NCBI GenBank assembly: GCA_021513695.1
Contig: CP084166.1
Coordinates: forward strand, 2,304,001-2,368,000
Length of the DNA: 64,000 nucleotides
Direction of reading: 5' to 3'
DNA from: Candidatus Heimdallarchaeum aukensis
GTDB taxonomy: Archaea > Asgardarchaeota > Heimdallarchaeia > Heimdallarchaeales > Heimdallarchaeaceae
Shown here: in pieces, positions 33,340 through 55,515 of the stretch
Layout of the letters: every line of letters starts with the position of its first letter
Position numbering within the stretch: the stretch's first letter is position 1
Notes under the pieces: model-generated
Told to the model about the DNA's origin: nothing
The model's input: the letters and a program-made list of their open reading frames with translations, nothing else
Database searches by the model: none
Program-made: the position numbers and the translations under genes

Positions 33340-34986
33340 ATGAAAAGTATTTTGGCTAAGGAAACGATTGTTATACGAATGATAACAATGAATAACTTAA
33401 GCTCAAACAGTAGTTATAGACAGAAAAAAAGTGGTTATTTAGACGTTCTTTTAATAGGTTTTTCAATAGTCTGTTTGTTACTTTATATCTTTTTTTTTAA
33501 CAAAATAGTTTTAGTTTTTGATGAATTTACAATTATTCTAAATATATTGTTCATATTTGCAATGTTTCTCCTATGGTCTTTAACTTCTAGTTTTTTTTAT
33601 TTTTTAAATAAAACAGAACATGAAGTCAAAATTTTTGTTTCAACTATTTCTCTTCTTATTGTAATGGCTATATTGTCAACTTACTTAATTTCAATAATGG
33701 AACGAATTTTTATTCTTATTACAAGCACAAAAGATAAGTTAATGATCATTATTTATACAGCTTATATAGTTCCTATTATAGAGGAAATTTCGAAAATTTT
33801 TCCGATTTTAATCCTTTTTAGACATTATATTCGTTATAAAAATAATGAGAAATTGGTTACATATCGTTTAATTGTCTCTTATAGGCAGTTTGTATTTTAT
33901 TCGGTTCTTTTTGGTTCATGTTTTGGTTTTTTTGAGCATTTCTTCTTATTCTCCTCTTTGTTTGATTATGAGAATATAGGTGATATCGCTTTTCTACGCA
34001 TCTTTTATCCTCTCCACCCTGTAACTTCTGGTTTGTTGGCGATTGGTATTGGTTATTTTTTGTTTGTTAATTCAAATGTAAAGAAACTGAAAAATTGGTT
34101 AATTGCTTTACCTCCTATTTTTTTGTCTTTAATTTTCCATATTTTATGGAATTACAATGCTTATTTTAATTCACTTACTATATTACAATATATAGGTTGG
34201 GCAGCTACTGGACTATTTTTTATCATTTGTATATCTTTACTTAAAAAACCAAAAATATGTGGCGATTGTGGGATACAGCATTCAGAAGGAGAATGCGTGA
34301 AAAACCCAACTTTTGTTCTTTCTCTTGAAAAAATTGTCAAGAAAGATACTGTGGTTGAAAAAGAATATATTGTAAAAGAAGATTATATCATGTGTCCTTT
34401 ATGTGGAGTACAAGCTTTTGATGGTGAAATCTGTCATGCTTGTAACAGCTGGGCAAAGTTCCAATGTTCTAATTGTAATCAAGTTGTACCTCCTTTTGCA
34501 AGAACATGTTGGTCATGTGGAGCATCTTTACCAACTCTACAGGAGAAAATTAGGTCTACATCCCCTTCATTATATATGACATTATCTGTTGCAATAACAC
34601 GAATTGTTTCATCTACAGTCTTAATTAGTTTAATAATTGGACTACTTAATCTGAAAAATAAATTAAGTTATTTAGGCTTCACAATTCTACTTCTTTCAAT
34701 TTTGATCGCTTTGTCTACCTCTCTAATTTGGTATCGTATAAACAATAAAAAAATTGATTCGATAATTGTGTCAATAGTTGTAACTTCATCCGTGTTCTTT
34801 ACTATAGTATCTATGAATCTACTTTTGATATTGTTAAGTATGATTCAATTGATTATTATACATAATCTTGTGTTTGGCTTTTTTGGCATAATATTCTCTT
34901 CTATCGTCCTTTATGGAATATACAGATATCTTAGGGCGATCTTTAAAGGAGATAGTTTAATTGTTGGGGGTGAAGTTCTTGGATGA
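33340..34986 (+). CDS. polytopic membrane protein with PrsW/CPBP-type intramembrane protease motifs and an internal double zinc ribbon. It is the first gene of module 1.
   Basis: The motif triad typical of PrsW/CAAX-protease folds is present inside TM segments: EExxK (IIEEISKIF), FxxEH (FGFFEHFF) and HxxxN (HILWNYN). A soluble insert carries CGDCG...GEC, CPLCG...CHAC, CSNCN...CWSC zinc-ribbon pairs. More TM helices follow. Confidence 0.45.
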   Translation: MKSILAKETIVIRMITMNNLSSNSSYRQKKSGYLDVLLIGFSIVCLLLYIFFFNKIVLVFDEFTIILNILFIFAMFLLWSLTSSFFYFLNKTEHEVKIFVSTISLLIVMAILSTYLISIMERIFILITSTKDKLMIIIYTAYIVPIIEEISKIFPILILFRHYIRYKNNEKLVTYRLIVSYRQFVFYSVLFGSCFGFFEHFFLFSSLFDYENIGDIAFLRIFYPLHPVTSGLLAIGIGYFLFVNSNVKKLKNWLIALPPIFLSLIFHILWNYNAYFNSLTILQYIGWAATGLFFIICISLLKKPKICGDCGIQHSEGECVKNPTFVLSLEKIVKKDTVVEKEYIVKEDYIMCPLCGVQAFDGEICHACNSWAKFQCSNCNQVVPPFARTCWSCGASLPTLQEKIRSTSPSLYMTLSVAITRIVSSTVLISLIIGLLNLKNKLSYLGFTILLLSILIALSTSLIWYRINNKKIDSIIVSIVVTSSVFFTIVSMNLLLILLSMIQLIIIHNLVFGFFGIIFSSIVLYGIYRYLRAIFKGDSLIVGGEVLG

Positions 34987-36163
34987 AGAGAAAAAATACA
35001 AAGAAAGGCAATTAAAGTTAGATGCAAAAAAACATTTCCTAGAACAATCCAAATTTACTGCAGCAGAGTTACAAGGAAGAGGATATCAGCTTTCACCTAT
35101 CTTGTTTGAAGATTCAAAAAGCAGAAGAGTATTTGATGAAGGAAAGGTTGAAAAATTTTCTTTTGTAGAGAAAACAAAAAAGGTATTTCTTACTTTATTT
35201 GGGTTTATTGTCAATCTTGTTTGGTTGGTTATTGACTATAATAATGTTAACAGTGAGAAATATTTTCTTCATAATAAAAATAGAAGTAAGAGAGAATATT
35301 ATACTGAATTAATATTACACATTTCAACATTTTATTCAATAACACTTATTGTTCTTGTTCTAATTAATTACTTTATTTTAGATTCGGCAGCTATTTCTTC
35401 TCTTTATGATATTCGTTCATTAGTTTGGTACCCGGATAGAGTATTGAGTTTAAGTTATATCTATGTTTTTTCAGCTGAAACTACTTTTGATATAATTACA
35501 AACACAATTTTAACAGTTTTAGTCCCATTTTTTATTGCTGGTGTTGTTGCTGGTATTGCATGGAAAGAAGATGCCAAAGATGTTGTCGGTCCATCTTCAT
35601 TTCTATCATTTTTACTGTTCATGGCTTTTTTCTTTAATGAAATCTTCATAACTTCATCCTTCAAAACAAATGATGTTCTTGCAGGATGGTTCTTGTCATT
35701 AATGTATGAATCTATGATGCTTATAATATTGTTTCAAGCACTTATGCTTAGTTTACTTGGTGGGGCATTGGGTGTTATGTTAGGCATTTCCTTTTCAAAT
35801 ATAGCTTCACAGAAGAATGATGAACAATCCTTTTTCTCACCTTCTATTCTCCCAGTAATACCTATTACAGTAAAAACTCTATTTGATATGGTAGATGTAT
35901 CTTCTTTAACTGGTTCTTCATTTAGCTCTAGAACAATGTTAGTTTATTTAAATAGAACTATAGAATTAAACTCAAAAAGAACAAGAACTGAACATTGTCC
36001 CTATTTTGTAGAAGGGCGTTGTGCATATTTAGGTTATAAAACCACTGCTACAAAAAAGCAAATCTGTACAACTGAATCATATAATTCTTGTAGGGTTCTC
36101 GCATTCATCTTGCAAAGTAAATTATTGATCAAAGAAATAAAAGAGGAAGAAAGAAATGGTTAA
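34961..36163 (+). CDS. hypothetical polytopic membrane protein with a Cys-rich C-terminal tail (module 1, position 2)
   Basis: Multiple TM helices. The C-terminus has CPYFVEGRCAYLGY...CTTESYNSC. It overlaps the upstream gene by 26 nt and the downstream gene by 8 nt. Confidence 0.35.
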   Translation: MLGVKFLDEEKKYKERQLKLDAKKHFLEQSKFTAAELQGRGYQLSPILFEDSKSRRVFDEGKVEKFSFVEKTKKVFLTLFGFIVNLVWLVIDYNNVNSEKYFLHNKNRSKREYYTELILHISTFYSITLIVLVLINYFILDSAAISSLYDIRSLVWYPDRVLSLSYIYVFSAETTFDIITNTILTVLVPFFIAGVVAGIAWKEDAKDVVGPSSFLSFLLFMAFFFNEIFITSSFKTNDVLAGWFLSLMYESMMLIILFQALMLSLLGGALGVMLGISFSNIASQKNDEQSFFSPSILPVIPITVKTLFDMVDVSSLTGSSFSSRTMLVYLNRTIELNSKRTRTEHCPYFVEGRCAYLGYKTTATKKQICTTESYNSCRVLAFILQSKLLIKEIKEEERNG

Positions 36164-36935
36164 TATCAAAGATTACATGAATCTAAAAGGTTTTGTTATT
36201 TTATTAGCTGCAATCCTGTTTATTTTACTAAATAGCACTCAAGAGTCCTATATCTCCATTGAGCAAATTGATTCTACAACTTTAGAAACAATTCAAACTG
36301 GTTCAGAAACGGGTACCGGTAGTGTCCCTCCTTCTCCTACTTCTACAAGTATACCTACATTTCCTGAAATCACGGATACTATTCCTCAACCTTCTTCTTC
36401 CAGTTTCTCACCAGCTACATTAATTGCTATTGTAACAAGTGTTATTTTCATAGGAATTATTATTCTATTAATTATGAAACGCAAAAATTTTGTCACTTAT
36501 GGTTCCTTCACTAAACCAAAAAGGATTCCTACAAAAACCATAATTGAAAAAAGAGAGATTTTTAGGACGCAAATTGTTACACTTAAAGATATCTTATTAG
36601 ATTACCTTGATAATAAAAAATATACCGAAGGTGTGATTTATGGTTTTCTTACCCTTGATAAAAATATGAAACAATTGTTAGGCTTAAAGAGAAAAAGTTC
36701 TCTAACACCTAAAGAATTCGCTGAATCCTTAGAACTTCCTGAGATCATTCAGAATCTAAAGAATATTGTTAATCAATTCTACAGAGCTAGATATAAACTT
36801 GATGAGTTAACAAAAGATGATTTGCTAGATTTTATTAATAATTTGGATATTATTAAAGAAAAAAGTAAAACTGCCAAGGAGATTGAAGTTCGTCAGGTTA
36901 TTGTAAAGGAGGAAATTACAAATGGAACGAATTAA
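36156..36935 (+). CDS. small surface stalk protein: signal/TM, Thr/Ser/Pro-rich linker, TM, and a cytoplasmic DUF4129-like tail (module 1, position 3)
   Basis: N-terminal TM (FVILLAAILFILL). Mucin-like TGSETGTGSVPPSPTSTSIPTFPEITDTIPQPSSSSFSP. Second TM (IAIVTSVIFIGIIILLIM). The tail has TPKEF...FYRARYKLDELTKDD, matching the TPxE[FY]...[FY]xxARYxxxx[IL]xxxD pattern shared with the 45443 and 49149 products. Confidence 0.4.
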   Translation: MVNIKDYMNLKGFVILLAAILFILLNSTQESYISIEQIDSTTLETIQTGSETGTGSVPPSPTSTSIPTFPEITDTIPQPSSSSFSPATLIAIVTSVIFIGIIILLIMKRKNFVTYGSFTKPKRIPTKTIIEKREIFRTQIVTLKDILLDYLDNKKYTEGVIYGFLTLDKNMKQLLGLKRKSSLTPKEFAESLELPEIIQNLKNIVNQFYRARYKLDELTKDDLLDFINNLDIIKEKSKTAKEIEVRQVIVKEEITNGTN

Positions 36936-38220
36936 TGTCTCAAGTGTTCGTTATGAAGCTATTTTTAAACTAATCCTACAAACAATGATTTTGTTTTTAA
37001 TCTTGATTTTTCCATTTGTATTTAATTTTGTCACCACTTCCCCTCCTTATACAATAAATAACTATGGTCCTGGCGGTTATTCAATTTTTAGAGAAAAACT
37101 AGAAGATGAGGGTTTTGATGTATCTCGAATCTTGATAAGCACGGAAAATCTCTTAGATCTTCCTAAATCTTCTATTCTAGTAATTGCTGGGGGAACAAAA
37201 ACCTACAGAAATATTGAAATTCAGCGAATTACGGCCTTTTTATACAGAGGAGGAACTGTTTTCTTACTTATTGATTCTGTGACTTCACAAAATTTAGCGC
37301 TTAAACTAAATGTTAGTTCTTCAATGAGCAATATTATGGAAACAGTGAACTATTATAAAACTCCTGAGATAGTTTTGACTGAAGCTCCATTTAAAGAGGT
37401 ATTAAAACACTCTCCTATTGATAAATTGGCTTTTCTTCAACCTAAAGTGGTCTATGGCTCCACAAGTCCTTTTCTAAAAATACAAACAAATAATACTGCA
37501 TTTCTTGATTCAAATTTTGATAAAAAATGGTCTAGATATACAGAAGATTTGAGAAAATACACTCTGGTCACTGTTGAAGGTCGAGGTGCAGGAATTTTAA
37601 TTGTTGTCGGTTCTCCAAGTTTTTTAACAAATGATTTTTACACTGCTGGCTTTGCAAACATCAACACTACTATCTACCTTTTAAAACTCTACTCTAGCTA
37701 TTTGTTTGGAGAAGAGGAACGATATGTTTATTTTGATGAAAGTCATAAACGCTGGTCTATTTGGTCTAGAGATGGTCTCATAAATCAAACTTATGGGACT
37801 ATTACCCTTCTTACTCAATCTGAATCTTTTATTGTGATGATTCTTTTGTTGATTATTAGTCTATATTATCTACTACCTAACGTGCGCAAATTAAAGAAAC
37901 GATCTAAAGAAGGCTACAAAAACTTTCTAAAAAAACATATCTACAGCAAAGAACGTGAGCTTTACGATACTTTGGGGCAACCAGTAAAACCAACTGAAGA
38001 AGAAAAAATATTAACTTCTTTATATTTTCAATATGAAAACTTCCCAAATAGAGTATATAACATCTATTTACAAAGAAAGTTAAATAATATCAGTGAAAAG
38101 AAATTTACTGACCAAGAAAAAACACTGTTTAATGAAATCATTAAAAGAAAAATTGATTTCAAACTATTTATTTACTTGTTTAATAAATTAGAAGAAATAC
38201 AAAAGAGGAACTTAATATGA
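36922..38220 (+). CDS. DUF4350-like membrane-anchored protein (module 1, position 4)
   Basis: N-terminal TM, then LVIAGGTKTYRNIEIQRITAFLYRGGTVFLLIDS. This is clearly paralogous to LVVIGPTTSYNFAETISLVTFLVRGGSLIVADDF in the 49704 product. There is a C-terminal TM (ITLLTQSESFIVMILLLIISLYYLL) followed by a cytoplasmic tail. The domain name is assigned by architecture and context, not by search. Confidence 0.45.
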   Translation: MERINVSSVRYEAIFKLILQTMILFLILIFPFVFNFVTTSPPYTINNYGPGGYSIFREKLEDEGFDVSRILISTENLLDLPKSSILVIAGGTKTYRNIEIQRITAFLYRGGTVFLLIDSVTSQNLALKLNVSSSMSNIMETVNYYKTPEIVLTEAPFKEVLKHSPIDKLAFLQPKVVYGSTSPFLKIQTNNTAFLDSNFDKKWSRYTEDLRKYTLVTVEGRGAGILIVVGSPSFLTNDFYTAGFANINTTIYLLKLYSSYLFGEEERYVYFDESHKRWSIWSRDGLINQTYGTITLLTQSESFIVMILLLIISLYYLLPNVRKLKKRSKEGYKNFLKKHIYSKERELYDTLGQPVKPTEEEKILTSLYFQYENFPNRVYNIYLQRKLNNISEKKFTDQEKTLFNEIIKRKIDFKLFIYLFNKLEEIQKRNLI

Positions 38221-39158
38221 ATGTAGAAGAAACAAAAGAAATTTTCCAAAAAGTCTTGGAACAGATGAAAAAAAGGATCGTAGGAAATGACAAAGTGATA
38301 GAATTAATTTTTGCTACGATGCTAGCCGATGGACATGTATTGTTGGAAGGAGTTCCTGGTATAGCTAAAACTTTAATGGCATCTACTTTAGCAGAAATAC
38401 TTGATCTCAATTTTAAACGAATTCAATTTACTCCCGATTTACTACCTGCTGATATTACAGGAGGAAATATATATAACAGAAAGACCAATGAGTTTGATTT
38501 TGTTAAGGGACCTGTTTTTACTAACATTCTACTAGCTGATGAAATAAATAGGAGTCCTCCCAAAACTCAATCTGCATTATTAGAAGCTATGCAAGAACAT
38601 CAAGTCTCAAGTGGAACGAAAACATATGACTTACCAGACCCATTTTTTGTTATCGCAACTCAAAATCCGATAGAGAGTACTGGTGTTTATCCCCTTCCCG
38701 AGGCACAAATTGATAGATTTTTAGTAAAAATTTTAGTTAAACCTCCAAATGTGTCTGGAGAAGTTGAAATGTTAAAAATGAAAAGAGAAAAGATGTTTGC
38801 TGATGTTGAAATAGTCGTAAAGAAGGAAACAATTTTGGCTATAAAAAGAGAAATTGAAACAAATGTTAAAATCTCTGATCAAGTACTGGAGTACATAGCA
38901 AAACTTGTTACAGCAACACGAGAGATACCTTCTTTATCATTAGGTGCAAGTCCTCGAGGATCTATCGCTTTATTAACTCTCAGTCGCTCTATTGCTGCCA
39001 TAAATGGTAGAGATTATGTTGAACCTGATGATATAAAATCTATCTTTCATGCCGTGATTAATCACCGTTTGATATTATCCCCTGAAGCAGAAATTGAACA
39101 AATAAAAGTTGAAGAGATAATTAAGAATCTCCTTTCTGAAGTTGAAGTAGTTATATAA
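38217..39158 (+). CDS. MoxR-family AAA+ ATPase (module 1)
   Basis: Walker A (GVPGIAKT), Walker B (LLADEINRSPPKTQSALLEAM) and the MoxR-specific C-terminal helical lid. 313 aa. ATGA overlap with the upstream gene. It is about 45-50% identical to the second MoxR at 51540. Confidence 0.9.
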   Translation: MNVEETKEIFQKVLEQMKKRIVGNDKVIELIFATMLADGHVLLEGVPGIAKTLMASTLAEILDLNFKRIQFTPDLLPADITGGNIYNRKTNEFDFVKGPVFTNILLADEINRSPPKTQSALLEAMQEHQVSSGTKTYDLPDPFFVIATQNPIESTGVYPLPEAQIDRFLVKILVKPPNVSGEVEMLKMKREKMFADVEIVVKKETILAIKREIETNVKISDQVLEYIAKLVTATREIPSLSLGASPRGSIALLTLSRSIAAINGRDYVEPDDIKSIFHAVINHRLILSPEAEIEQIKVEEIIKNLLSEVEVVI

Positions 39159-39177: not shown

Positions 39178-40557
39178 TTGTCCTTAGAAACAAGAACTGA
39201 ATTAACTAACTCAGGAAGATTTCTTATACTAATCGGTTCCATCATGCTTGTTTTAGGGATTGCTATCGAAAATTATTTGTTTATTATCCCTGGATTATTT
39301 GTACTCTTGGTTATTATTTCAATTCTTGCTAATTTTTTCCTTTTCCAAAGTTTCCCAGAGGCTTCTATAACAGTTTCAAAAGACCATGTACGTAATAGGG
39401 GACTTGTGGCAGTTGTAGGTAATATTCGAAATAATAGCAAAAAAACGCTAATTTGCCGTATAACCCTAAACTATTCTTATCACTTTCATACAGTTGAAAA
39501 GCCCGAATCTTACCTTGTTCAAATAAAACCGGATTCCGAAATTAAACTAGATTGGTATTTATTAGCTATTAGAAGAGGAAATGGAACAATTGGACCAATT
39601 TCAATTTCTCTTAGATTTTTTCAGCAACTTCTTGTCAATCAAATAACTTGTCCAGAGAAAATACAAGTAAAAATTCTTCCTCAAAGACCAAAAATCCAAA
39701 TTCCGTGGAAAACGAAGAAGGATCTCTTGATGCAACTAGTAAACCAATTTGCACAAAGGGTTAAAGGACAAGGAACAGAATTTTTTGCTCTACGAGATTA
39801 TTTACCTGGAGATGAAATGAAGCATATAGATTGGAGAGCTACAGCTAGACATGATAAGCTCATAACGAGAGAATTTGAAGACGAAAAGCAGCTACACTTT
39901 CTCATTTTCCTTGATTTAGGAAGTACAATGTTTGGACCAAAATTTGATTATGCTTTGTCCAGTGTTGTTTCACTTTGTAGTTTGATAAAGGGGACCAATC
40001 ATGATTTGACTGTTATAGCTTATTCTCATGTAGTAGAGAAGTTTATTGTACCTCAAATTGGTATCCACGAATTAAAATTAATGCTTAATTTATATGATTT
40101 AGAAGCTACTGGAGTTCAAAGTGACTTTGTAGAAGCTGCAAAATTTGCTAGAACACAAAAATTTCATCATAGTATAGCAATCATCTTTTCTGACCTAGAT
40201 GGAGATATTAATCAAAAACTTCGTGGATTAGATATTCTTAAACTGATGGGGTCTAAGATTATATTTGTTAATTTTTCTACTCCAAGTTTTAACATTCTTG
40301 CATCCAAAGAATGGTTGATTGAAAAATCTCCAACGATATCTTATTCTACTATTTTAGATAAGGTTTTTTCAAGTTTAGCAATGGATGAATACAAAAATAG
40401 AGAATTAAAAGTAAGAAGAATATTACATGCTTTCGATGGAGATTTTGTTTCTATATATGGTTATGATGATGATATTATTTTAGCTCTCTATCGCCTTATG
40501 AAGAAATATAGCATTAAGCGAAAATTAGATGTTTTTTATAACAGAGGGGAAACTTAA
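39178..40557 (+). CDS. DUF58 protein (vWA-like, MoxR partner; module 1)
   Basis: The DUF58 core motif HIDWRATARHDKLITREFEDEKQ followed by FLIFLDLGSTM (MIDAS-like DxSxS region). Two N-terminal TM helices. It is 19 nt downstream of the MoxR gene. Confidence 0.8.
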   Translation: MSLETRTELTNSGRFLILIGSIMLVLGIAIENYLFIIPGLFVLLVIISILANFFLFQSFPEASITVSKDHVRNRGLVAVVGNIRNNSKKTLICRITLNYSYHFHTVEKPESYLVQIKPDSEIKLDWYLLAIRRGNGTIGPISISLRFFQQLLVNQITCPEKIQVKILPQRPKIQIPWKTKKDLLMQLVNQFAQRVKGQGTEFFALRDYLPGDEMKHIDWRATARHDKLITREFEDEKQLHFLIFLDLGSTMFGPKFDYALSSVVSLCSLIKGTNHDLTVIAYSHVVEKFIVPQIGIHELKLMLNLYDLEATGVQSDFVEAAKFARTQKFHHSIAIIFSDLDGDINQKLRGLDILKLMGSKIIFVNFSTPSFNILASKEWLIEKSPTISYSTILDKVFSSLAMDEYKNRELKVRRILHAFDGDFVSIYGYDDDIILALYRLMKKYSIKRKLDVFYNRGET

Positions 40558-48400: not shown

Positions 48401-49147
48401 GTTACGCTGTTCATTACTCTGACAGATCCAAACGGTGTTGAAGTGGAAAATGAAGCAATAGCTTTAACAGCTCAAGCTGGTACAATTATTTATAGTTACA
48501 CCCTAGATCTGAGTGTTTTTAATTATTCAGTATATGGAGGATATTTATTAGAATATCATTTCTACGTGGAAGATACTATAGGTAATAATATTAGTACGAC
48601 TTCTGTTCAATTAGCTATTAGTAATCCTGCGCCACCCAATCGTCCTCCTGTTGGAGATCCAGCTGATCCAAGTAGTGAGACCCCTATAGGTGGTATTGTT
48701 GGAGGAGCAATTGGTGGTATTGTTGCTCTTATAGTAATTCTTTTCCTATGGTTCAATAGACACTCTCTCCGAAGTTATGCTCAGCAACAAACATTGAGAA
48801 AGAGACTAAGAGACTATCTTCGCGAAATACTAGAAGACATCAAACGTTTGGGTTCAGAAAGCCGTTACAAAGAAGCTGTTCTAAAAACCTGGCAAGTAAT
48901 TGAGGGTGTAGGAAGAGAATTTTTTGATACTCCTAGGTTTAGACATCAAACACCTATGGAGTATGCTACTGTTCTTTCCAGAAGAGGAAAGATAGATATG
49001 GCGATACTCAATACTCTTTCGGAGTATTTTGAAAAAGCAAGATATGGCGCTGAAGTGATAACTGAAACAGACTTCAATGCAACCATATCTGCATTAATGA
49101 AAATAATTAACCAGTTAGAAGCTGGTGAAATGGAAATAGAAACATAA
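45443..49147 (+). CDS. giant (1234 aa) Thr/Ser/Asn-rich surface protein with an N-terminal signal/TM, a C-terminal TM and a cytoplasmic DUF4129-like tail (module 2, position 2)
   Basis: N-terminal hydrophobic segment (IFTVFISLIIFLSSLPVYS). The ectodomain of more than 1000 aa has dozens of N-x-S/T sequons (NLT, NVT, NIT, NTT, NSS...) and no Cys-rich motifs. C-terminal TM (IGGIVGGAIGGIVALIVILFLWF). The tail has HQTPMEY...YFEKARYGAEVITETD, matching the DUF4129-like pattern. It overlaps the upstream gene by 7 nt. Confidence 0.55.
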   Translation: MVRTMKYYNHIKIFTVFISLIIFLSSLPVYSFNYEKLVTKSDLDPTIENNLINYENKNRELNVYSNFKHSSHFTKREKKTPGNYEYYRSPLNIGLYVSIPGTSSLSSDSSRLKLSISSPTEGTKLFRGNTITVSGVLRSAAPNDFWDGETVEIYYNLTEAEFKVDPDSYRSSNYYVTSVVTNSQGEFTATISTSTLSADFRSKVGNITIFTWFDGNPDKGRGSGSPGSSYVFVYGGLKTDVSYSVTNPNQPYSFTTRILFDNNTEVTTSGTQYHIQVTWLTDNRVDINGNFTFTTNSHTYSNTSPSTIQTVKYESYYDSSQLSLNFFVTTGDTSFSNKLLHAVKQATTSEQVVVSSYYVTGTGLTDADIAIPLDSYITVYANVSDSSGLVGAGYNVTLEFYHGTTRYNLTTIQTNSSGAIQTKHFVDHNNIADITINNAFYITMTVSSSEFGGADVTPDSLGSVLESIINSISISISNTTIFYTSGKSISYTVTVTDNFGRVAPLAQFQVDFPGLSVITSSTGSSGTKTLSSVIPSYTIHTQTKTINVTALFTDGGTYRYFLNGTPQNNDTFNIYFDLTLTLQGPYDSNIVDGESTSYFNNTYYSFFQTGNIYNLTVVDEWGRNPVGAPFSLNFEGQTVSGVVTSGNNFIELDPDFNPTTGVDINVPTTISLVAEAGEANYQSSISHTVSIYGPDLDAPVINGETLSPNPFTTASHEPFFNVSFSISVSDVGSGVRSVIIYYQVIESNDSSLLNPANWITLNLTDLGGGIWFGYINTTIDFALQYVHYYIEVKDYAGYGLQENGTRQPTAQYDENFGLTGYLYNETHTNYYQLGDYEPPVEVAVPTTVDSPDPKSPYLNITVYVNDSLIYTGVSQVLIYINRTAVGGTTEINWVNGVQMTNIPGTNAWFYQLLAEYNYQYSWYYVAYDNAEPSPRTFKSQTYTYEAIDDTPPIIYNIDVVPSTGLLWNSTMNFTIRVDDVQNEVENVTLFITLTDPNGVEVENEAIALTAQAGTIIYSYTLDLSVFNYSVYGGYLLEYHFYVEDTIGNNISTTSVQLAISNPAPPNRPPVGDPADPSSETPIGGIVGGAIGGIVALIVILFLWFNRHSLRSYAQQQTLRKRLRDYLREILEDIKRLGSESRYKEAVLKTWQVIEGVGREFFDTPRFRHQTPMEYATVLSRRGKIDMAILNTLSEYFEKARYGAEVITETDFNATISALMKIINQLEAGEMEIET

Positions 49148-49148: not shown

Positions 49149-49655
49149 GTGAATAAAATGTTCGGATGGGCAAAAAAGAGAAAAAGGTTAAAAAAATTAG
49201 ATCAACTGTTTAATGCTGCTATGGCTGATGTAAGAATATTTGAGCAAAGGCAAGACTATAGAGGAGCAGTTATTGCTTCATTTGGAGGTCTTGCAAGCAT
49301 TGCAGAGAACTTGATAAATCTTACAAGAGCTCCACATCAGACAGGTAGAGAATTTGGCATGCAAGTTGCAGAACAAGCAAACATCTCTACAGAAGTCATG
49401 GATGAGTTTCTTACATCTTTTGAAATAGCTAGATACACAGAAAGAGAAATAGGTTATGATGATTATCAAGAGGCCGTACAACGATTAGATGTTTGCTTTA
49501 GAGGAATACGAGAGCAAGGTATTCAAGAAATAACTGAAGTAACATCTTCAAAGAAAGAAAAGAAACCAAAAGTGAAAACAGCTAAAGCAGCAAAAACTGA
49601 AGTTAAAACTACTAAACAGTTAAAAACTCGAAAACAGTTGAAAACTAGAAGATAA
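49149..49655 (+). CDS. small cytoplasmic DUF4129-like protein with a Lys-rich C-terminal tail (module 2, position 3)
   Basis: HQTGREFG...SFEIARYTEREIGYDDYQEA matches the same TPxE[FY]...ARY...D pattern. The C-terminus is KKEKKPKVKTAKAAKTEVKTTKQLKTRKQLKTRR. It starts 2 nt after the giant gene's stop. Confidence 0.4.
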   Translation: MNKMFGWAKKRKRLKKLDQLFNAAMADVRIFEQRQDYRGAVIASFGGLASIAENLINLTRAPHQTGREFGMQVAEQANISTEVMDEFLTSFEIARYTEREIGYDDYQEAVQRLDVCFRGIREQGIQEITEVTSSKKEKKPKVKTAKAAKTEVKTTKQLKTRKQLKTRR

Positions 49656-49703: not shown

Positions 49704-51488
49704 ATGTCCGAAAAAGAAAATCAAGAAATAGTGGACGAATATGAACAAGAACTTGTGAAAAAAGAAGATGATTCATCAAAAAAGAAAAAAGTAAAGAAGG
49801 CTAAAGTTAAAAGAAAAAGTAAAAAACCAAAGAAAAAATTCAAACTTAGAAAAGTAAGGTTTACAAAGTATTCTTTAGCTATGACCTTGCTATTTCTCAT
49901 AGTTATCGTTCCACTGTTTATTGGTTTAGTTGGATTAGGTGGAAGAAGTGTAAAATTTTCCATCTACAACACCGGTTGGGATGGTCTTTCCACTGTATAT
50001 AATACATTACAAGCTGAAAACAAATATGAAATATCAAACGGAATGTCAAGTTTAACTATTTTAAATAGATTGAATAGCAGTGGAGTTCTCGTAGTTATCG
50101 GACCAACAACAAGTTACAACTTTGCTGAGACAATTAGTCTCGTAACCTTTCTGGTAAGAGGAGGAAGTTTGATAGTTGCTGACGACTTTGGTTCAGGAAA
50201 TAAAATATTCGAACCGCTTTGGAACGTTATTGCAACCTATGACTCTCTTGTATCTTTAGGACTTGTTCCTTCTTTAACAGATATATTCTTCGGAAATCAA
50301 AGTGCACCATCAAATGTTACATCAGTTGAAGATTTAGCTGGTGCAGCAATTTTTGAGATGCTAGCAGGAATGTTAAAAGCAATAGGTTTTAATCAAACGG
50401 TATTAATGGATGCAGGAAGTAATTATGGTGGAGTAAGTTCTCAACCGTTGTTAAAGGATACAAATCCAGATAACCCCTTAACTGCTGGAATTACAAAGGG
50501 AGTTCAAATGGAATTTGGTACGGTATTAAGTGTTAAAATCAATAACTCTCGATATAATCCATCCACAGGACGTTATGAGTGGTATACAGATTGGGTTCCC
50601 TTGCAGCCTTTGTCTATAAATGTCACAATTGAAGGGGGAGAGTATGGAAATCTTGAGCCAATTTTCATTGAAGATGTGATGTTACCTTTTCTCTCGTTTT
50701 TCACAACTACGACATCGTGGATGGAGTCGAATTTTAGAGATGCACTTACTGGAGAAGCAGTTCCCAATGAAGGAGAATGGGGAAACACTGCCTTTGCCCC
50801 TATTTTGTCAATACCAATAGGTAGGGGAAAAATAGTTATGATTGGAGACCCTGATATATTCATAAATAAATGGATAGAAGATACAGAAAATAATGATAAC
50901 TTGCAATTTTGTCAGAATTTGTTCAATTATGTAACCGAAAATATGGTTGCAAATACAACAAGTGGAAAAATACCTATAATATTTGATGAAGGACATACAC
51001 AATATAAATTCTATAGTCCTGCTCTGGTATCAACCATTTTAATGAGGTTGATTACTGAAATGTCCATGTATCCACTTTATTCACCTTTTGTTCCTATCAT
51101 GTTTGCTGTTATAGCATATCCCCTTATCCCAAAAGCTAGACGATTGGCCCCTGTATTATGGACTAGATACAGAGGAGAAAGAGGAAGGTCACGATTTGAA
51201 CGCGAAATAAAAAGAATATTAGAAACTGGAAGTTACAGTGAAGCAGTAGGTTTACTTTATAGGTCCATGTTACGGGGAGTAAGAAAAGTAGATACCTCTG
51301 CCGCAAGTTCACCTAAATCTTTGGCAGATTTCTTTATTTCAAGGGGATACCCCCTAAAAAGAGGAGCGTTGGTAAGTGAATTCGAGCGAATTGATCGCTA
51401 TTTACAGAGACCAAAGTTGCTCCCACAATCTGAATTTGAAAAAATGTTGCAGTTTATCAAGAATTTAATTGATACTCTGCCTAAATAG
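49704..51488 (+). CDS. DUF4350-like membrane-anchored protein with a Lys-rich N-terminal tail (module 2, position 4)
   Basis: The N-terminus has KKKKVKKAKVKRKSKKPKKKFKLRKVRF, then a TM (LAMTLLFLIVIVPLFIGLVGL), then the ectodomain with LVVIGPTTSYNFAETISLVTFLVRGGSLIVADDFGSG, paralogous to the 36922 product. C-terminal TM (YSPFVPIMFAVIAYPLIP) and a cytoplasmic tail. Confidence 0.45.
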   Translation: MSEKENQEIVDEYEQELVKKEDDSSKKKKVKKAKVKRKSKKPKKKFKLRKVRFTKYSLAMTLLFLIVIVPLFIGLVGLGGRSVKFSIYNTGWDGLSTVYNTLQAENKYEISNGMSSLTILNRLNSSGVLVVIGPTTSYNFAETISLVTFLVRGGSLIVADDFGSGNKIFEPLWNVIATYDSLVSLGLVPSLTDIFFGNQSAPSNVTSVEDLAGAAIFEMLAGMLKAIGFNQTVLMDAGSNYGGVSSQPLLKDTNPDNPLTAGITKGVQMEFGTVLSVKINNSRYNPSTGRYEWYTDWVPLQPLSINVTIEGGEYGNLEPIFIEDVMLPFLSFFTTTTSWMESNFRDALTGEAVPNEGEWGNTAFAPILSIPIGRGKIVMIGDPDIFINKWIEDTENNDNLQFCQNLFNYVTENMVANTTSGKIPIIFDEGHTQYKFYSPALVSTILMRLITEMSMYPLYSPFVPIMFAVIAYPLIPKARRLAPVLWTRYRGERGRSRFEREIKRILETGSYSEAVGLLYRSMLRGVRKVDTSAASSPKSLADFFISRGYPLKRGALVSEFERIDRYLQRPKLLPQSEFEKMLQFIKNLIDTLPK

Positions 51489-51539
51489 AATAATGTTTCA
51501 AAAAATAAAAACAAAAAAAGAAAAGGAAAGTGAAAAAAA

Positions 51540-52541
51540 ATGAGTGAAGAAGAAAAACCGGCAAAACCGGCTAAAGGAAAAGCACAAACCGAAGCAGTGG
51601 TAACTCCAAAAGATATCAAGAGAGTTTGGTCTGAGATCTATGCTGAATTAAAACGTGTAATTATAGGTAAACTAGACGTACTGGAAGATCTCTTTATTGC
51701 TCTTCTAGCAAGAGGACATGTGCTGCTTGAAGGTGTACCTGGTGTTGCAAAAACCGTCATGGCTAAAAATTTTGCTGCTACCCTTGGAGCTGAATTCAAA
51801 AGAGGACAATTTACCCCAGATTTACTTCCAAGTGACGTTGTAGGTACTACAATATATGATCCTAAAGCAGGAACATTCAAAATGAGAAAAGGACCTATAT
51901 TTACAAACATCTTCTTGGCTGACGAAATTAACAGAAGTCCTCCAAAAACCCAAGCTGCATTACTTGAAGCAATGGCTGAAAAACAAGTCACAGTGGAAGG
52001 AACTACATTCAAGCTTGAGCCACCTTTTTTGGTAATTGCAACTCAAAACCCTGTAGAACAAGAGGGAACTTACCCATTACCAGAAGCACAAGTAGATCGT
52101 TTTATGTTTAAACTGATAGTTGACCTACCTTCGCCAGAAGAAGAAATAGAGATAATTGATCTTTCACACAAGCATGCTTTTCGCACAGTTCGCAGAATAA
52201 CTACTCCTATGACCATCATCAGAATGATAGAAACTGTGGAGAAAAGAATCTATGTACATGAAGATATTATGGCTTATATCAGAGATATTACTGTCGCAAC
52301 TCGTACTGATCCACGATTATTACTTGGTGGTTCTCCAAGATGTAGTATCGCGCTGTTAAATGCTTCAAAAGCTGTAGCTGCAATGAACGGTAGAGATTAC
52401 GTAATTCCTGATGATGTTAAACGAATAGCAAAAATAGGCGCAGCTCATCGATTGCAGATGAAACCGGAAGCAGAATTGGAAGGTACCACTGGAAGTATGG
52501 TTATGGACGACATCTTGCGCAATTTACCAGTACCAGTATAA
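51540..52541 (+). CDS. MoxR-family AAA+ ATPase (module 2)
   Basis: Walker A (GVPGVAKT), Walker B (FLADEINRSPPKTQAALLEAM). 333 aa. Clear paralog of the 38217 gene. Confidence 0.9.
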   Translation: MSEEEKPAKPAKGKAQTEAVVTPKDIKRVWSEIYAELKRVIIGKLDVLEDLFIALLARGHVLLEGVPGVAKTVMAKNFAATLGAEFKRGQFTPDLLPSDVVGTTIYDPKAGTFKMRKGPIFTNIFLADEINRSPPKTQAALLEAMAEKQVTVEGTTFKLEPPFLVIATQNPVEQEGTYPLPEAQVDRFMFKLIVDLPSPEEEIEIIDLSHKHAFRTVRRITTPMTIIRMIETVEKRIYVHEDIMAYIRDITVATRTDPRLLLGGSPRCSIALLNASKAVAAMNGRDYVIPDDVKRIAKIGAAHRLQMKPEAELEGTTGSMVMDDILRNLPVPV

Positions 52542-52551
52542 AGTTAATTAG

Positions 52552-54000
52552 GTGATTACAATCTTTACACGAAGAGGAGGATACCTGATATTCTTTGGTA
52601 TTGTAATGATTAGCGTAGGCTTTGCACTTGCAGGTTTCCTAGCTCTAAATAATATACTTGAATCATTTGGAGCACATCCAGTGCCTGAAACATCAACAGA
52701 AGGCCCTCAAGGAACAGGTTTAATGGATCTTTTACATTTCTACCTTTTAGATTCGACTCTAATATGGTATTTCATCATTTTAGGTGTTATGCTAATATTT
52801 TCCGTTATGCTTGGTTTACCTTTCTATAGACTCGGTGCAAACCCTGAATCTATAGAAATAAAAAGAAAAGTAGCTAAAGCAAAAGCTTTTGCAGGAGATT
52901 ATGTGTATATAGAAGTGACAGTAAGAAACAGATCTGTAAACCAGCTTCCCCACGTAGAAATTTACGATGCAATTCCAGAAGTCTTTGACTTAGTGTTAGG
53001 CGAAAATTTCATTATTACACAGCTGAATCCAAAGGAAACAGTTACATTTGGATATGTAGTTCGGATACCAATTAGAGGATTGTTCAATATTGGACCAACT
53101 AAAGTTATAATCAAAGATAGAATGGGATTCTACGCTACAGAAGGAGAAATTAAAACAAAGACGGAGATATTAGTTTATCCAAGCTATGAAGATATTAGAA
53201 AAATGGAAATGATAGGCAAAAAACGTCGTCTAGGTGTAATTTTTGGAATGCATAGAACTAAAGTTAAAGGAATGGGAGACGATTTCGCTGGAATTAGACA
53301 GTATCAAACAGGAGATCCATTTAAATTTATTGACTGGAAAAGCGTTGCACGTTCTGGGAAAATGATGGTTCGTGAATTCGAAGCAGAGCAAAATATTCGA
53401 GTAATTATCATGATCGATGCCTCTGCAAGTATGGGTGCTGGGCTACCTAGAAACACTAAGTTAGAATATGCTATTCGAAGTGCAGTGTTACTAATGCATC
53501 TTGCTTTCGAAAAACACGATATGGTTGGTTTGTGTGTTTATGATGATGAAGTTAGAACATGGATTGATCTAACCAGTTCTAGAAATAGACTCTTTGCGTT
53601 TTTGGAGGCTTTAGCCTTAGTAAAACCAAAAGGGGAATCAGATCTAGAAAAAGCTATGGATTATGCAATAAAGAGAGTACGAAGAGCATCCTATATAGTT
53701 ATTTTGTCTGATTTAGAGTCTAATCCACAAAAAATAGTTTCAGCAATTAGGCAAGCGCGGGGACGGAAACACCAAGTAACAGTTATAAGTCCATTTGGAC
53801 CTTGGTTTGAGATTGTATCTCAGCAATTGAGCCCCATAGAGCAACTAATTGGTTATGCTATGGTTGAAAAACAGATGGGTGAAAGATATAGAATGTTTAA
53901 GGCTATAAGAAAATTCGATGCTACCACTGTTAATGTTGGACCAGATGATTTCTTACCTACAATTATGGCTCAGTTCAGAAGGATACAAAGGAGGGGATGA
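52552..54000 (+). CDS. DUF58 protein (vWA-like, MoxR partner; module 2)
   Basis: FIDWKSVARSGKMMVREFEAEQN followed by VIIMIDASASM (DxSxS MIDAS-like). N-terminal TM helices. It is 10 nt downstream of the MoxR gene. Confidence 0.8.
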   Translation: MITIFTRRGGYLIFFGIVMISVGFALAGFLALNNILESFGAHPVPETSTEGPQGTGLMDLLHFYLLDSTLIWYFIILGVMLIFSVMLGLPFYRLGANPESIEIKRKVAKAKAFAGDYVYIEVTVRNRSVNQLPHVEIYDAIPEVFDLVLGENFIITQLNPKETVTFGYVVRIPIRGLFNIGPTKVIIKDRMGFYATEGEIKTKTEILVYPSYEDIRKMEMIGKKRRLGVIFGMHRTKVKGMGDDFAGIRQYQTGDPFKFIDWKSVARSGKMMVREFEAEQNIRVIIMIDASASMGAGLPRNTKLEYAIRSAVLLMHLAFEKHDMVGLCVYDDEVRTWIDLTSSRNRLFAFLEALALVKPKGESDLEKAMDYAIKRVRRASYIVILSDLESNPQKIVSAIRQARGRKHQVTVISPFGPWFEIVSQQLSPIEQLIGYAMVEKQMGERYRMFKAIRKFDATTVNVGPDDFLPTIMAQFRRIQRRG

Positions 54001-54003
54001 AAA

Positions 54004-55515
54004 ATGGAATCATTATCAGAAACAAGAATGATTGATCTTGGAATTAGAGGAGTAGAACGAAGGCTTAAAGGGGCAAGAACACAGACTATTATTACCAACG
54101 TAATTTCTAGATTAATTGCTATAGGTGTTATATTATGGCTATTTCTTCAATTATGGACTAATATTGATAAAACAAAATTACCTCCTGGCCATTTAATTGA
54201 TTCACTTACTATCTTCTTTCTCTATTTTGAGAATTTTGCGGTATTATTCTTTCTTATACCAATATTCTTGATATCTTTAATTTTCGGAGCAATGGGTAGT
54301 GGCGCAGATGGGAGCGCTATATTACTTACGGCAAGAGCATTTTTTACTGTAGACATTTTCAATAATGTTTCTCCTCCAGAACCGATGACTTCATCTGAAC
54401 TTTATGGAAGTGAAAGCACAAACATGTTTTCAGTCTTTACCAGTGCTTTTGGTTATCTGTGGCGAAATCGTATTTACTTCAAAGATACTAATCGAGCAAC
54501 AATTCTCATTTTAGCTGTAATTATTTTCTGGTTAGGTGTAACTGCCTTTCTGATGAGGTCTGATATGAGGACAGCAGCAACCGTCTTTGCTTCTTCTCAA
54601 TTCATTGTACTATATGCTCAAACCCAATTGTTATTTAAAAATCAGTTATATTATGCTCCAACAGAAAATATAGTTGTGCTCTTTTCTTATGATGCAGTAA
54701 TTACAGCTTTAGCATCATATCTGTTCCTAGAGATAGCGTTGCAAACATCTTATATCTCTAAAATACTTAATCCAACGCAAGATAGACAAAAAAGAGTTTT
54801 ACAAGCTCTTGATAGACTAAAAGAATTTAGATTAGGAATAACCCCTGTAACAACAGAAGTGAGTAAACCTGAAACTGAGGAGACTAAAAAGGAAGCCTCA
54901 AAAACAATTGCAGGAGCAGGAAGCAGTTTGGTCAAAAAGTACGGTGCTACAGCAGTGGCGTTTTTAGCAGAAAAAACTAAAGATTCGCTTTTTGCTAAAC
55001 CTGGAGGACGACAAGCTAAATTGACAGGGAGACTGCAACGATATCATGATAGTTTGGTGCATAGTGATACAGAGGTTGATCAAAAACTAGTAGGGGCATC
55101 AGTAGCTGTCTCACCAATGATGACGATAGTATATATTACCATTTCAATAATCTTTAGATTAATAATAATGATGCTCGGACTATTTTTAGTCTTAAATCCT
55201 GATATTCTGTTATTCATTCTTCGTTATCCTCCTTCAATTTATTATAGTCTAGAAATGTTAGAACCAGAAGGAGTAGTTCTACTTTTAATACCAATAGTAG
55301 TAATGATATTATTGTTAACAGAGCTAATAGGTTATATACAGAAGAGATTAGCTGAAAGAATAACCCAAGAAAAAACAGAAGAAGAATTAATGGAAGAAAT
55401 TCAATATGAAGAAGAAGAGGGCACAGGAGTAGTAACAGAAGGACCGATAAGTGATATATCAGAAGAAGAATTATTCTATAAACAATTAGAAGAAGAATTC
55501 TCTGATGAAGAATAA
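54004..55515 (+). CDS. hypothetical polytopic membrane protein with a strongly acidic C-terminal tail (module 2 terminal gene)
   Basis: About eight hydrophobic helices. The C-terminus is EEELMEEIQYEEEEGTGVVTEGPISDISEEELFYKQLEEEFSDEE. It starts 3 nt after the DUF58 stop. Confidence 0.4.
   Translation: MESLSETRMIDLGIRGVERRLKGARTQTIITNVISRLIAIGVILWLFLQLWTNIDKTKLPPGHLIDSLTIFFLYFENFAVLFFLIPIFLISLIFGAMGSGADGSAILLTARAFFTVDIFNNVSPPEPMTSSELYGSESTNMFSVFTSAFGYLWRNRIYFKDTNRATILILAVIIFWLGVTAFLMRSDMRTAATVFASSQFIVLYAQTQLLFKNQLYYAPTENIVVLFSYDAVITALASYLFLEIALQTSYISKILNPTQDRQKRVLQALDRLKEFRLGITPVTTEVSKPETEETKKEASKTIAGAGSSLVKKYGATAVAFLAEKTKDSLFAKPGGRQAKLTGRLQRYHDSLVHSDTEVDQKLVGASVAVSPMMTIVYITISIIFRLIIMMLGLFLVLNPDILLFILRYPPSIYYSLEMLEPEGVVLLLIPIVVMILLLTELIGYIQKRLAERITQEKTEEELMEEIQYEEEEGTGVVTEGPISDISEEELFYKQLEEEFSDEE

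Follow-up and report, generated by a model that had tools for sequence, protein, structure and literature searches.

Two neighbouring gene arrays of Candidatus Heimdallarchaeum aukensis as probable subtypes of a MoxR-DUF58-DUF4350-DUF4129 membrane system

The locus and its two gene arrays

The complete genome of Candidatus Heimdallarchaeum aukensis (3,081,793 bp) carries two co-directional arrays of seven genes each within a stretch of 64,000 nucleotides (contig CP084166.1, positions 2,304,001 to 2,368,000 of the forward strand), which is called the window here and to which all coordinates refer unless another locus is named. The arrays had been picked out from the letters of the window alone in an earlier reading, the original prediction, and all 14 open reading frames (ORFs) that it listed on the + strand were found where it placed them. 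They are labelled A1 to A7 for array A (33340-41339) and B1 to B7 for array B (42339-55515), and the window proteins correspond to GenBank entries UJG40256-UJG40270. What do these genes encode? Array A and array B are, with high probability, two subtypes of one membrane system composed of MoxR, DUF58 (vWA), DUF4350 (GIFT) and DUF4129 proteins, namely the "arCOG01314-associated" system of Makarova et al. (2015). A system of this kind is not new, having been predicted in 2015. What sets this locus apart is the adjacency of the two subtypes and their accessory sets: a PrsW-like protease, A2 and A7 in the A-type, and in the B-type a transglutaminase-like protein that is predicted to be dead, a DUF4129-tailed protein with about 30 sequons, a soluble copy of DUF4129, and B7. 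GenBank annotation of the core genes already reads MoxR, DUF58, DUF4350 or DUF4129, and the locus is not discussed in the genome paper of Ca. H. aukensis.

The genes are packed as in operons, as had been foreseen. Successive junctions measure -26, -8, -14, -4, +19 and -1 nt in array A, and -7, +1, +48, +51, +10 and +3 nt in array B. The gap of 999 nt between the arrays carries thyX on the - strand (41437-42147; Thy1, 218.6 bits), and because of this opposite orientation the arrays are counted as two transcription units. Motifs like GGAGG or GAGG, resembling Shine-Dalgarno sequences, lie 5′ of several internal genes, and oligo-T runs are found just 5′ of the promoter region of A1 and just 3′ of B7. 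Such packing would fit two operons.

Directly 5′ of A1 there is a small ORF on the + strand (32972..33235), which starts with TTG and encodes 87 amino acids with two transmembrane (TM) helices. It is also present at loci L006 (6132-6386) and L007 (1654-1917), that is, in three genomes in all, with a shared C-terminal motif, LFKAIGDI(A/T)EAxLxE, and is followed by two long T-runs (33240-33258). It has no match in Pfam, and could be counted as an eighth member of module A, or else be a small gene in its own right.

The core shared by both arrays

Four kinds of proteins are common to the two arrays. A5 (38217..39158, +) and B5 (51540..52541, +) are MoxR AAA+ ATPases, which match AAA_3 with 217.7 and 215.2 bits and AAA_lid_2 with 76.6 and 76.4 bits in Pfam, respectively. 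Their Walker A motifs read GVPGIAKT in A5 and GVPGVAKT in B5, and their Walker B motifs ILLADEINR and IFLADEINR. No TM segment is found in A5, and MoxR is a soluble protein.

The next gene in each array, A6 (39178..40557, +) or B6 (52552..54000, +), encodes a DUF58 protein (58.4 and 124.3 bits, respectively), and B6 also matches VWA_2 (56.2 bits) and, weakly, DUF11. The motifs quoted in the original prediction are present in these proteins with two corrections. A DW(R/K)...REFE motif is aligned in both, but B6 has DWK, not DWR; and the DxSxS form of the metal-ion-dependent adhesion site (MIDAS) is found in B6 alone of the two (DASAS), as in all B-type DUF58 orthologues. The MIDAS is degenerate in the vWA-like domain of A6 (DLGST), reads DLSST in an A6 orthologue, and is of the form DxTxE in the Thermococci type. 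A6 begins with a TM hairpin at residues 12-35 and 37-60, in B6 a hairpin with an acidic loop, and with a K/R-rich stretch beyond helix 2, likewise precedes an Ig-like region and the vWA domain, and exactly two N-terminal hydrophobic segments occur in 49 of the 56 DUF58 orthologues. The hairpin loop averages 0.2 K+R and 3.7 D+E residues, and 4.9 K+R are found in the 25 residues past helix 2. DUF58 is thus predicted to use a hairpin as its anchor and to expose its Ig-like and vWA part to the cytoplasm: since the loop is acidic and poor in K+R, and basic residues follow helix 2, the vWA domain should lie on the MoxR side of the membrane.

The DUF4350 proteins are A4 (36922..38220, +; 49.0 bits) and B4 (49704..51488, +; 47.6 bits), both above the Pfam gathering threshold of 30.4. 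A4 consists of an N-terminal anchor, a GIFT-type ectodomain, a C-terminal TM helix and a cytoplasmic tail of 110 amino acids, its TM segments being at residues 17-35 and 303-321. B4 has a Lys-rich N-terminus, a GIFT-fold ectodomain flanked by two TM helices, and a helical cytoplasmic tail of 120 amino acids. For MoxR, DUF58 and DUF4350, as well as for the Transglut_core domain described below, the Pfam searches confirmed what had been assigned from the letters.

The case of DUF4129 (PF13559, gathering threshold 24.8) is a little less simple. B3 (28.1 bits) and the tail of B2 (residues 1163-1213; 26.8 bits) exceed the threshold, whereas A3 stays just below it with 23.8 bits; in profile-profile comparison by hhalign, however, the A3 family matches the B3 family with 94% and the B2 tail with 95% probability, so that the assignment stands for A3 by this route. 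A3 (36156..36935, +) is a single-pass protein with a short Ser/Thr/Pro-rich stalk outside, TM segments at 7-25 and 89-107, a K/R-rich stretch and then the DUF4129 domain. B2 (45443..49147, +) is 1,234 amino acids long and has a signal peptide, a sequon-rich ectodomain and one TM helix (1084-1102), again followed by a K/R-rich stretch before the tail. B3 (49149..49655, +) is a soluble DUF4129 protein without any TM segment, has a Lys-rich C-terminus, and is a paralogue of the B2 tail (99.9% by hhalign). Because they come after a TM helix and a K/R-rich stretch, these DUF4129 domains are predicted to be cytoplasmic. Among 88 tails the conserved positions, in B3 numbering, are R60, T/S65, F91-E92-x-A94-R95-Y96 and L113, in keeping with a core of the form R...T.xE...FExARY.

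Put together, the conserved unit appears to have four parts: a size-variable surface protein with a single TM helix and then a helical DUF4129 domain, predicted to be cytoplasmic; a protein with a GIFT-fold ectodomain, a C-terminal TM anchor and a predicted cytoplasmic tail; a soluble MoxR AAA+ protein; and a DUF58 protein that would sit in the membrane by its hairpin and hold its Ig-like and vWA domains in the cytoplasm. Domain identities and gene order are direct observations, and these topologies are predictions from sequence. Cytoplasmic parts of the system are conserved and surface parts evolve fast: in array B, the identities of the cytoplasmic proteins are 79% for B5, 74% for B6 and 72% for B3, versus 40% for B2 and 34% for B1 on the surface; conservation of A5 is 76%.

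Accessory proteins and the question of proteolysis

What surrounds this core differs between the arrays. A1 (33340..34986, +) would be a polytopic intramembrane protease of the PrsW type, followed by a double zinc ribbon and then three further TM helices. A1 itself has no PrsW match in Pfam (E up to 10) or NCBIfam, but its orthologue at L006 (6554-8230), 34% identical, matches PrsW-protease with 36.2 bits against a gathering threshold of 23.5, and the family keeps E148-E149-x-x-K152, F198-E199, P224-L225-H226, H267-x-x-W270-N271 and five CxxC pairs invariant. The double zinc ribbon scores 17.7 bits in A1, below threshold, but its Cys pairs are among these invariants. From the match of the orthologue and the invariant motifs, A1 is taken as a PrsW-like protease with a double zinc ribbon, and NCBI names a 440-aa member of its cluster a PrsW family protein. 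The original prediction had pointed to PrsW/CPBP-like motifs; however, it had placed the protease fold in an extracytoplasmic domain, whereas PrsW is an intramembrane protease. A 532-aa member of the cluster begins with MNNLSS, and the true start of A1 may be M14 or M17.

A2 (34961..36163, +) has about five TM helices by hydropathy and a C-terminal region with Cys residues, and its orthologues are found in A-type loci only. A7 (40557..41339, +) has six TM helices and 13 orthologues, every one of them in an A-type locus. B7 (54004..55515, +) is a helical membrane protein of about seven TM helices, in which a cytoplasmic loop is conserved and the C-terminal tail is acidic; it occurs only in the B-type modules of Heimdallarchaeia. 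None of A2, A7 and B7 matches any family of Pfam or NCBIfam, and a model of B7 has no specific fold relative and no recognised channel-like fold. In all, 10 proteins searched against NCBIfam had no match there.

The first gene of array B is of another kind. B1 (42339..45449, +) is polytopic, with four N-terminal hydrophobic segments and one C-terminal one, K/R-rich stretches at both ends, and a large transglutaminase-like domain (Transglut_core, 32.9 bits; gathering threshold 23). In B1, Ser, Tyr and Gln stand where the catalytic triad Cys-His-Asp would be, in a register aligned manually to human TGM2 through the GIPAR, WVE and WG (WGQFQ) motifs. In 20 orthologues the triad positions vary while the scaffold motifs are conserved. 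B1 is therefore predicted, from its sequence, to keep the transglutaminase fold and to be enzymatically inactive. Compared with PDB sequences, its transglutaminase core gave only spurious matches to tubulin (E >0.1). In the B1 versions at loci L028-L031 the His is the only triad residue present. Sequons are concentrated in the parts of the B proteins that should face outward: 13/13 in B1 lie within residues 166-1003, 29/30 in B2 within residues 31-1083 (about 19 would be expected from composition for the whole protein), and 7/7 in B4 within the ectodomain. B2 also matches Big_1 weakly (14.2 bits).

With a PrsW-like protein in one array and a transglutaminase-like protein in the other, are these modules machines of ATP-dependent proteolysis or quality control near the membrane, in which the vWA protein recruits substrates, MoxR unfolds them, and the peptidase (transglutaminase-like in B, PrsW-like in A) cuts them? 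Zhang and Aravind proposed such a role in 2012 for the triad of MoxR, vWA and YebA/TgpA. The PrsW-like protease of module A does keep motifs of the catalytic type. PrsW is a site-1 protease that cleaves the single-pass anti-sigma factor RsiW, and A3 and A4 are single-pass proteins that may be compared with this substrate. On the other hand, with the triad of B1 replaced by residues that vary among its orthologues, module B would have no recognisable peptidase, and the widespread minimal quartet described below comes without any peptidase gene. Moreover, characterised MoxR ATPases are remodelling chaperones and not unfoldases that feed a protease (PMC9976466, PMC13036017, PMC7159879). Proteolysis is plausible for module A and unlikely for module B, and as the function of the whole system it seems rather improbable.

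Distribution of the unit and the question of secretion

How far does this organization extend? A B4-type profile was scanned against one genome per species, and gave 67 loci that were annotated with hidden Markov models built from the window proteins; an A4-type profile scanned against metagenomes gave nine loci. The block A1-A7, thyX(-), B1-B7 and EF-2(-) is syntenic in metagenome-assembled genomes (MAGs) of other Heimdallarchaeaceae, down to 42% identity of A4. Two deep subtypes side by side are thus a conserved block of 22 kb in this family. In the nine metagenome loci, contigs that reach past A7 run into thyX, and longer ones into B1; no stand-alone A module was seen among these or the genome loci. 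All Heimdallarchaeaceae loci have thyX between the modules. Its product is about 595 amino acids long in two MAGs (L008, 607-2400, and L019), and this length, together with a faint LAGLIDADG match in L008, suggests a thyX that contains an intein.

MAGs of the Hod-, Kari- and other Heimdall groups have a B3-like gene, B4, B5, B6 and B7 in the same order. Upstream of these, a single protein of about 1,700 amino acids (4221-9323 at L063, one of the Hod-type loci L037-L064) stands in place of B1 and B2. Its features are a poly-Thr stalk, 45 sequons and, near the C-terminus, a TM helix with a tail of 10 residues, and it has no Pfam match. DUF4129 is found there on a separate, N-terminally anchored membrane protein of 172 amino acids (9455-9973 at L063). 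The Hod-type loci also carry an additional conserved gene after B7, encoding a soluble protein of 177 amino acids.

Outside this group the unit becomes smaller. In Thermococcus, Methanoregula and a Dehalococcoidales bacterium it consists of an Ig-like surface protein of 600-660 amino acids, DUF4350, MoxR and DUF58, and the Ig-like proteins scanned from all three end in a C-terminal DUF4129; the upstream proteins of Thermococcus and Methanoregula match Big_3_5 with 32 and 38 bits, respectively. Thermococci and Methanomicrobia, as well as one Dehalococcoidales bacterium, thus share this gene order, and the co-occurrence of MoxR, DUF58, DUF4350 and DUF4129 that a neighbourhood search was proposed to look for is found in archaea and in this bacterium. 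A locus of Thermoplasmatota (L076) has an upstream ORF of 678 amino acids, DUF4350 and MoxR, and no DUF58 was found adjoining. On a Halorussus plasmid, DUF1616, DUF4350, MoxR and DUF58 adjoin glycosyltransferase genes. The MoxR-DUF58-DUF4350-DUF4129 unit is among the more widespread conserved clusters whose function is predicted only.

Makarova, Galperin and Koonin (2015; PMC5898192), in their treatment of arCOG01314, modelled this neighbourhood as a putative complex for secretion or membrane remodelling, proposing secretion from the neighbourhood and from the similarity between DUF4350 and GldG. Applied to the present arrays, the membrane and GIFT proteins would form a dedicated conduit, and MoxR and the vWA protein would assemble it or energise the export of Ig-like surface proteins. 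The components are indeed mostly membrane or surface proteins, and each array closes with a polytopic protein of no recognised fold, A7 or B7. However, the putative cargo has ordinary signal peptides and TM anchors of its own, for which Sec would suffice; the vWA protein, "likely secreted" in the 2015 model, is here predicted to face the cytoplasm; B7 shows no recognised channel-like fold; and a large polytopic protein is missing from the minimal unit of euryarchaea. A dedicated secretion system is accordingly judged quite improbable, a shade more so than a proteolytic one.

Are the two arrays duplicates of each other?

The original prediction saw seven paralogous positions and an old duplication. 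The MoxR, DUF58 and DUF4350 pairs are paralogous and diverged as it had stated: by BLASTP, A5 and B5 are 48% identical (E 3e-103), A6 and B6 22% (E 7e-19), and A4 and B4 32% across 107 residues (E 1e-6). The A3/B3 pair was found with E 0.005, besides the hhalign match given above. By contrast, neither BLASTP nor hhalign shows any similarity between A1 and B1 or between A2 and B2. A7 and B7 were tried as homologues and rejected (no BLASTP similarity; 2% by hhalign). Homology between the arrays is thus confined to positions 3-6, and positions 1, 2 and 7 are unrelated.

Could one array nevertheless have arisen from the other, A from B or the reverse, by tandem duplication in the Heimdall lineage and later divergence? 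The arrays are adjacent and co-directional, they share four genes in the same order, A-type modules are seen only next to B-type modules (in 9/9 metagenome loci and in all genome loci), and rapid evolution after a duplication could look like a deep branch. The sequences themselves speak in another direction. Identity of B5 is graded, 81% within Heimdallarchaeaceae and then 66%, 57% and 53% towards Hod-type genomes, as vertical descent predicts, while A5 is about equally distant (43-49% identical) from every MoxR group sampled, including Thermococci (47%) and the B5 next to it. B6 scores 102 bits against Thermococci proteins and 80 against A6, and B4 71 bits against Thermococci and 33 against A4. 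In neighbour-joining trees with midpoint rooting, the only trees built, the A clade is monophyletic in 100/100 bootstraps and a group of A plus Heimdallarchaeaceae B appears in 0/100, so that nothing in these simple trees supports a duplication. With three of the seven positions unrelated in addition, a local duplication is unlikely, and the origin proposed at first is not retained.

Deep divergence or a separate acquisition of A seems to fit better. B is probably the ancestral module of Heimdallarchaeia, vertically inherited across the Heimdall, Hod and Kari lineages, and A a second, deeply divergent subtype that was added next to B in Heimdallarchaeaceae. In Hod-type genomes, the F420-ligase and TPR genes that are found beside module A at L006 and L007 adjoin the B-type module. 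The lineage closest to eukaryotes would thus have retained one version of the system vertically and added a second.

What could the modules do?

The reading we favour, tentatively, is that each module is an ATP-driven chaperone for assembly or remodelling of a membrane-anchored surface glycoprotein complex; the membrane-associated MoxR AAA+ remodelling machine with ties to surface proteins that had been suggested from the architecture is consistent with the present evidence. All contacts and directions of action below are drawn by analogy with better-known MoxR proteins. In the cryo-electron microscopy structure of NorQ/NorD, a finger of the vWA protein is inside the MoxR pore, and an earlier study found that carboxylates on the target surface are required (PMC9976466, PMC13036017). 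In the general model of Kaur et al. (2020; PMC7159879), a peptide is caught by the vWA domain and is then let go by MoxR with its conformation changed. Similarly, the vWA domain of DUF58 may dock on the MoxR hexamer, and its MIDAS face may grip acidic or extended cytoplasmic tails, such as the DUF4129 domains, the DUF4350 tail or the acidic tail of B7. ATP hydrolysis would then remodel, assemble or release the TM complex on which the glycosylated ectodomains are displayed. For module B, these would be the ectodomains of the giant B2, of the GIFT protein B4 and of the transglutaminase-like B1, which as an inactive enzyme would act as a binding module, so that module B might be a dedicated chaperone for assembly and maintenance of a cell-surface glycoprotein complex. 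Module A would be almost without ectodomain cargo, A3 having only a stalk on the outside, and its PrsW-like intramembrane protease could cleave a single-pass subunit.

Several observations weigh against this chaperone reading or parts of it. A6 and the euryarchaeal versions have a degenerate MIDAS, so binding of tails through the MIDAS cannot be universal. DUF4350 tails were also tried as DUF4129-like domains, and this was not supported, with hhalign probabilities of 8-17% for B4 and <2% for A4 and no Pfam match. In loci L028-L031, from Heimdallarchaeota MAGs, B1-, B2-, sometimes B3-, and B4-like genes occur with no adjoining MoxR or DUF58, and therefore the surface proteins can be encoded apart from the ATPase; at L028 the gene that comes next encodes GTP cyclohydrolase I by Pfam. 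The TM predictions come from plain hydropathy and positive-inside counts, not from a trained predictor, and with K/R-rich stretches at both ends of B1 hydropathy does not settle on which side of the membrane its large domain lies.

Might the surface proteins instead be sensors? In outside-in sensing and signalling, or in biological conflict, a surface protein would sense and MoxR with vWA would relay, as in the Esr and PFNA clusters and the ternary systems of MoxR and vWA. The Esr pathway, as outlined in its preprint, pairs an Ig-repeat surface sensor with MoxR, vWA and a transglutaminase by which the sensor is kept on the cell (bioRxiv 10.64898/2026.09.08.750141), and the PFNA cluster, by its description, has fn3, a gene for a MoxR-type AAA ATPase, duf58 and tgm. 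The ectodomains of the present system are size-variable and fast-evolving with conserved cytoplasmic parts, as a sensor might be, and both MoxR proteins match the bpMoxR model (47 and 39 bits). However, neither the arrays nor the related loci examined contain a kinase, phosphatase, FHA, transcription-factor or effector domain. VMAP, iSTAND, FtsH and beta-propeller proteins, the third components of ternary systems, are not found among the 14 proteins by Pfam, and 10 proteins have no match in the defence models of PADLOC. Module B is vertical in its inheritance, not patchy, and sits beside housekeeping genes (EF-2, thyX, cofGH), and its B1 is predicted to be dead, unlike the role proposed for EsrD. 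A sensing function is therefore regarded as unlikely, though less so than export or proteolysis.

Taking identity, mechanism and evolution together, the explanation centred on an assembly chaperone remains the best one available, with a chance that falls somewhat short of even.

The GIFT fold and eukaryotic proteins

In its ectodomain, B4 shares the GIFT fold with OST48 and IFT52, and for A4 and B4 the likeness to OST48/WBP1 and IFT52 lies in the fold alone. The A4 family profile finds IFT52 with E 0.0035, and over the A4 and B4 profiles the values range over E 0.0035-0.41, whereas no OST48/WBP1 chain in PDB is matched by either family profile. For OST48_N in Pfam, A4 reaches only 12.5 bits (E 0.09) and B4 has no match, so no homology is seen at the sequence level. 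The signature LV[IV]xGxTxxYxxxExxxxxxFLxRGG shared by A4 and B4, quoted in the original prediction, aligns with the IFT52 segment ILVLGGPKEKFTAPEVDMLKKFVKNGGSILIL, and thus appears to be a general GIFT-domain signature and not specific to this system.

Divergent WBP1 homologues restricted to Heimdallarchaeia were described by Eme et al. (2023). It is conceivable, though at low probability, that B4 is one of them. The wider idea takes module B as the surface-glycoprotein machine of Heimdallarchaeia and B4 as the archaeal counterpart, possibly the ancestor, of OST48/WBP1 and/or IFT52. Since the link is at the fold level only, this is put as very unlikely. If it were true, a eukaryotic signature protein would work with a MoxR AAA+ protein (of the dynein/midasin type), a vWA/MIDAS adaptor and an inactive transglutaminase-like domain. 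It is a set of MoxR, vWA and transglutaminase-like proteins that Zhang and Aravind (2012) proposed as the origin of ciliary and midasin systems.

Other features of the window

Gene order upstream of A1 has been locally rearranged. At L006 and L007, A1 comes straight after an F420-ligase gene, a TPR gene and the small ORF, whereas in the window (23175-33340) the TPR gene (25064-25795) is separated from the small ORF by five genes of the - strand: a Ras-family small GTPase (25848-26504; Ras 155 bits, Roc 93 bits), a 282-aa gene of no family (26444-27292), CDC48 (27420-29609), a gene for a CoA-disulfide-reductase-like protein with rhodanese (29781-31499), and a 4xCBS gene (31665-32831). A further - strand gene (13882-14805) encodes 307 amino acids with a weak longin-like match (Clat_adaptor_s, 20.2 bits, below threshold), and this protein and the GTPase look like typical Asgard eukaryote-like proteins. 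On the + strand there are the archaeal signal recognition particle RNA (10554-10861; 114.8 bits), a tRNA-Val (CAC) gene (22058-22132), and a C5 cytosine DNA methylase gene (22141-23121) that begins 9 nt past the tRNA. The position just after a tRNA is a frequent site of integrated elements.

Comparison with known systems

Is this, then, a system that had not been described, as the original prediction supposed? The neighbourhood of DUF4350, MoxR and vWA was reported in 2015 (PMC5898192), and the triad of transglutaminase, MoxR and vWA in 2012 (PMC3495828, PMC3507681). The function of such units is predicted only, and to that extent the arrays are not an already characterised operon of known function. 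In the part of the 2015 account that defines the arCOG01314 system, a membrane-anchored DUF4350 protein, MoxR and a vWA (DUF58) protein belong to one predicted operon, accompanied by surface proteins of Ig-like type and by membrane proteins that are small or polytopic, in many archaea and some bacteria. Both arrays agree with that definition, having a DUF4350 ectodomain with a C-terminal TM helix and MoxR and vWA as operon-mates. In comparison with it, module A adds the PrsW-like protease, A2 and A7, and module B adds the inactive (as predicted) transglutaminase-like protein, the soluble DUF4129 protein and B7. The DUF4129 tail of the surface protein is not named in that part of the account, and DUF1616 (pfam07760) proteins, which belong to the arCOG01314 comparison, are absent from the window. 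The model would be refined at several points: the vWA adaptor, "likely secreted" in the 2015 account, is predicted to be cytoplasmic, a DUF4129 tail on the cytoplasmic side marks the surface partner, the transglutaminase-like partner is predicted to be a dead enzyme, and the DUF4350 ectodomain has the OST48/IFT52 fold.

The bacterial triad of TgpA/YebA is a second relative. According to the sections of Milani et al. (2012) on this protein, the periplasmic part of TgpA from P. aeruginosa has transglutaminase activity in vitro, and tgpA is apparently essential and co-transcribed with the upstream genes PA2875 and PA2874. The triad (PA2875-PA2873) and module B have in common MoxR, DUF58 and a polytopic transglutaminase-like protein in one transcription unit. 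PA2875 and PA2874 are here presumed to be the MoxR and DUF58 genes. DUF4129 is, in Pfam, the C-terminal domain of TgpA-type transglutaminase proteins. The differences are that the catalytic triad of TgpA is intact and active while B1 lacks all three residues, and that in module B DUF4129 resides on the separate proteins B2 and B3, DUF4350 is present, and the gene order is another one.

A third relative comes from mycobacteria, including M. tuberculosis, where the cluster Rv3689-Rv3695 contains DUF4350 (Rv3691), MoxR2 (Rv3692) and DUF58 (Rv3693), and its orthologues are co-regulated in M. chelonae (PMC8191103). At least these three proteins are common, in the same order and with membrane proteins ahead of them. 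The mycobacterial cluster adds SpoIIM-like and RDD proteins and has no transglutaminase-like or PrsW-like protein or giant glycoprotein, and its function is likewise predicted only.

The Esr and PFNA clusters resemble module B in another respect, namely a large surface protein with Ig or FN3 repeats that is clustered with MoxR, vWA/DUF58 and a transglutaminase-like membrane protein. In Schaalia odontolytica, by the preprint's own summary, the Esr pathway is needed for responses of the host to its epibiont and comprises a surface Ig-repeat protein, MoxR, vWA, a transglutaminase and kinase, phosphatase and FHA proteins, and loss of the transglutaminase frees the surface protein (bioRxiv 10.64898/2026.09.08.750141, September 2026). 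In bifidobacteria the cluster, as its description gives it, is pkb2-fn3-aaa_atp-duf58-tgm. Compared by these descriptions, in which DUF4350 and DUF4129 do not appear, the bacterial clusters have a Ser/Thr kinase, a phosphatase, FHA and a signalling role, while the archaeal modules are without an output domain; and EsrD appears active, unlike B1.

The best mechanistic template is provided by the pairs NorQ/NorD, RavA/ViaA and CbbQ/CbbO. These pairs and the present modules share a hexameric ATPase of the AAA_3 family and a vWA partner with a MIDAS, which is intact in B6 and degenerate in A6; in the NorQ/NorD type the vWA finger enters the pore and the MIDAS face binds carboxylates of the target. 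Such pairs act on soluble or membrane enzymes, for metal insertion or release of an inhibitor. In the Heimdallarchaeum modules, by comparison, the vWA protein is predicted to be anchored in the membrane, and its likely clients would be the tails of surface proteins.

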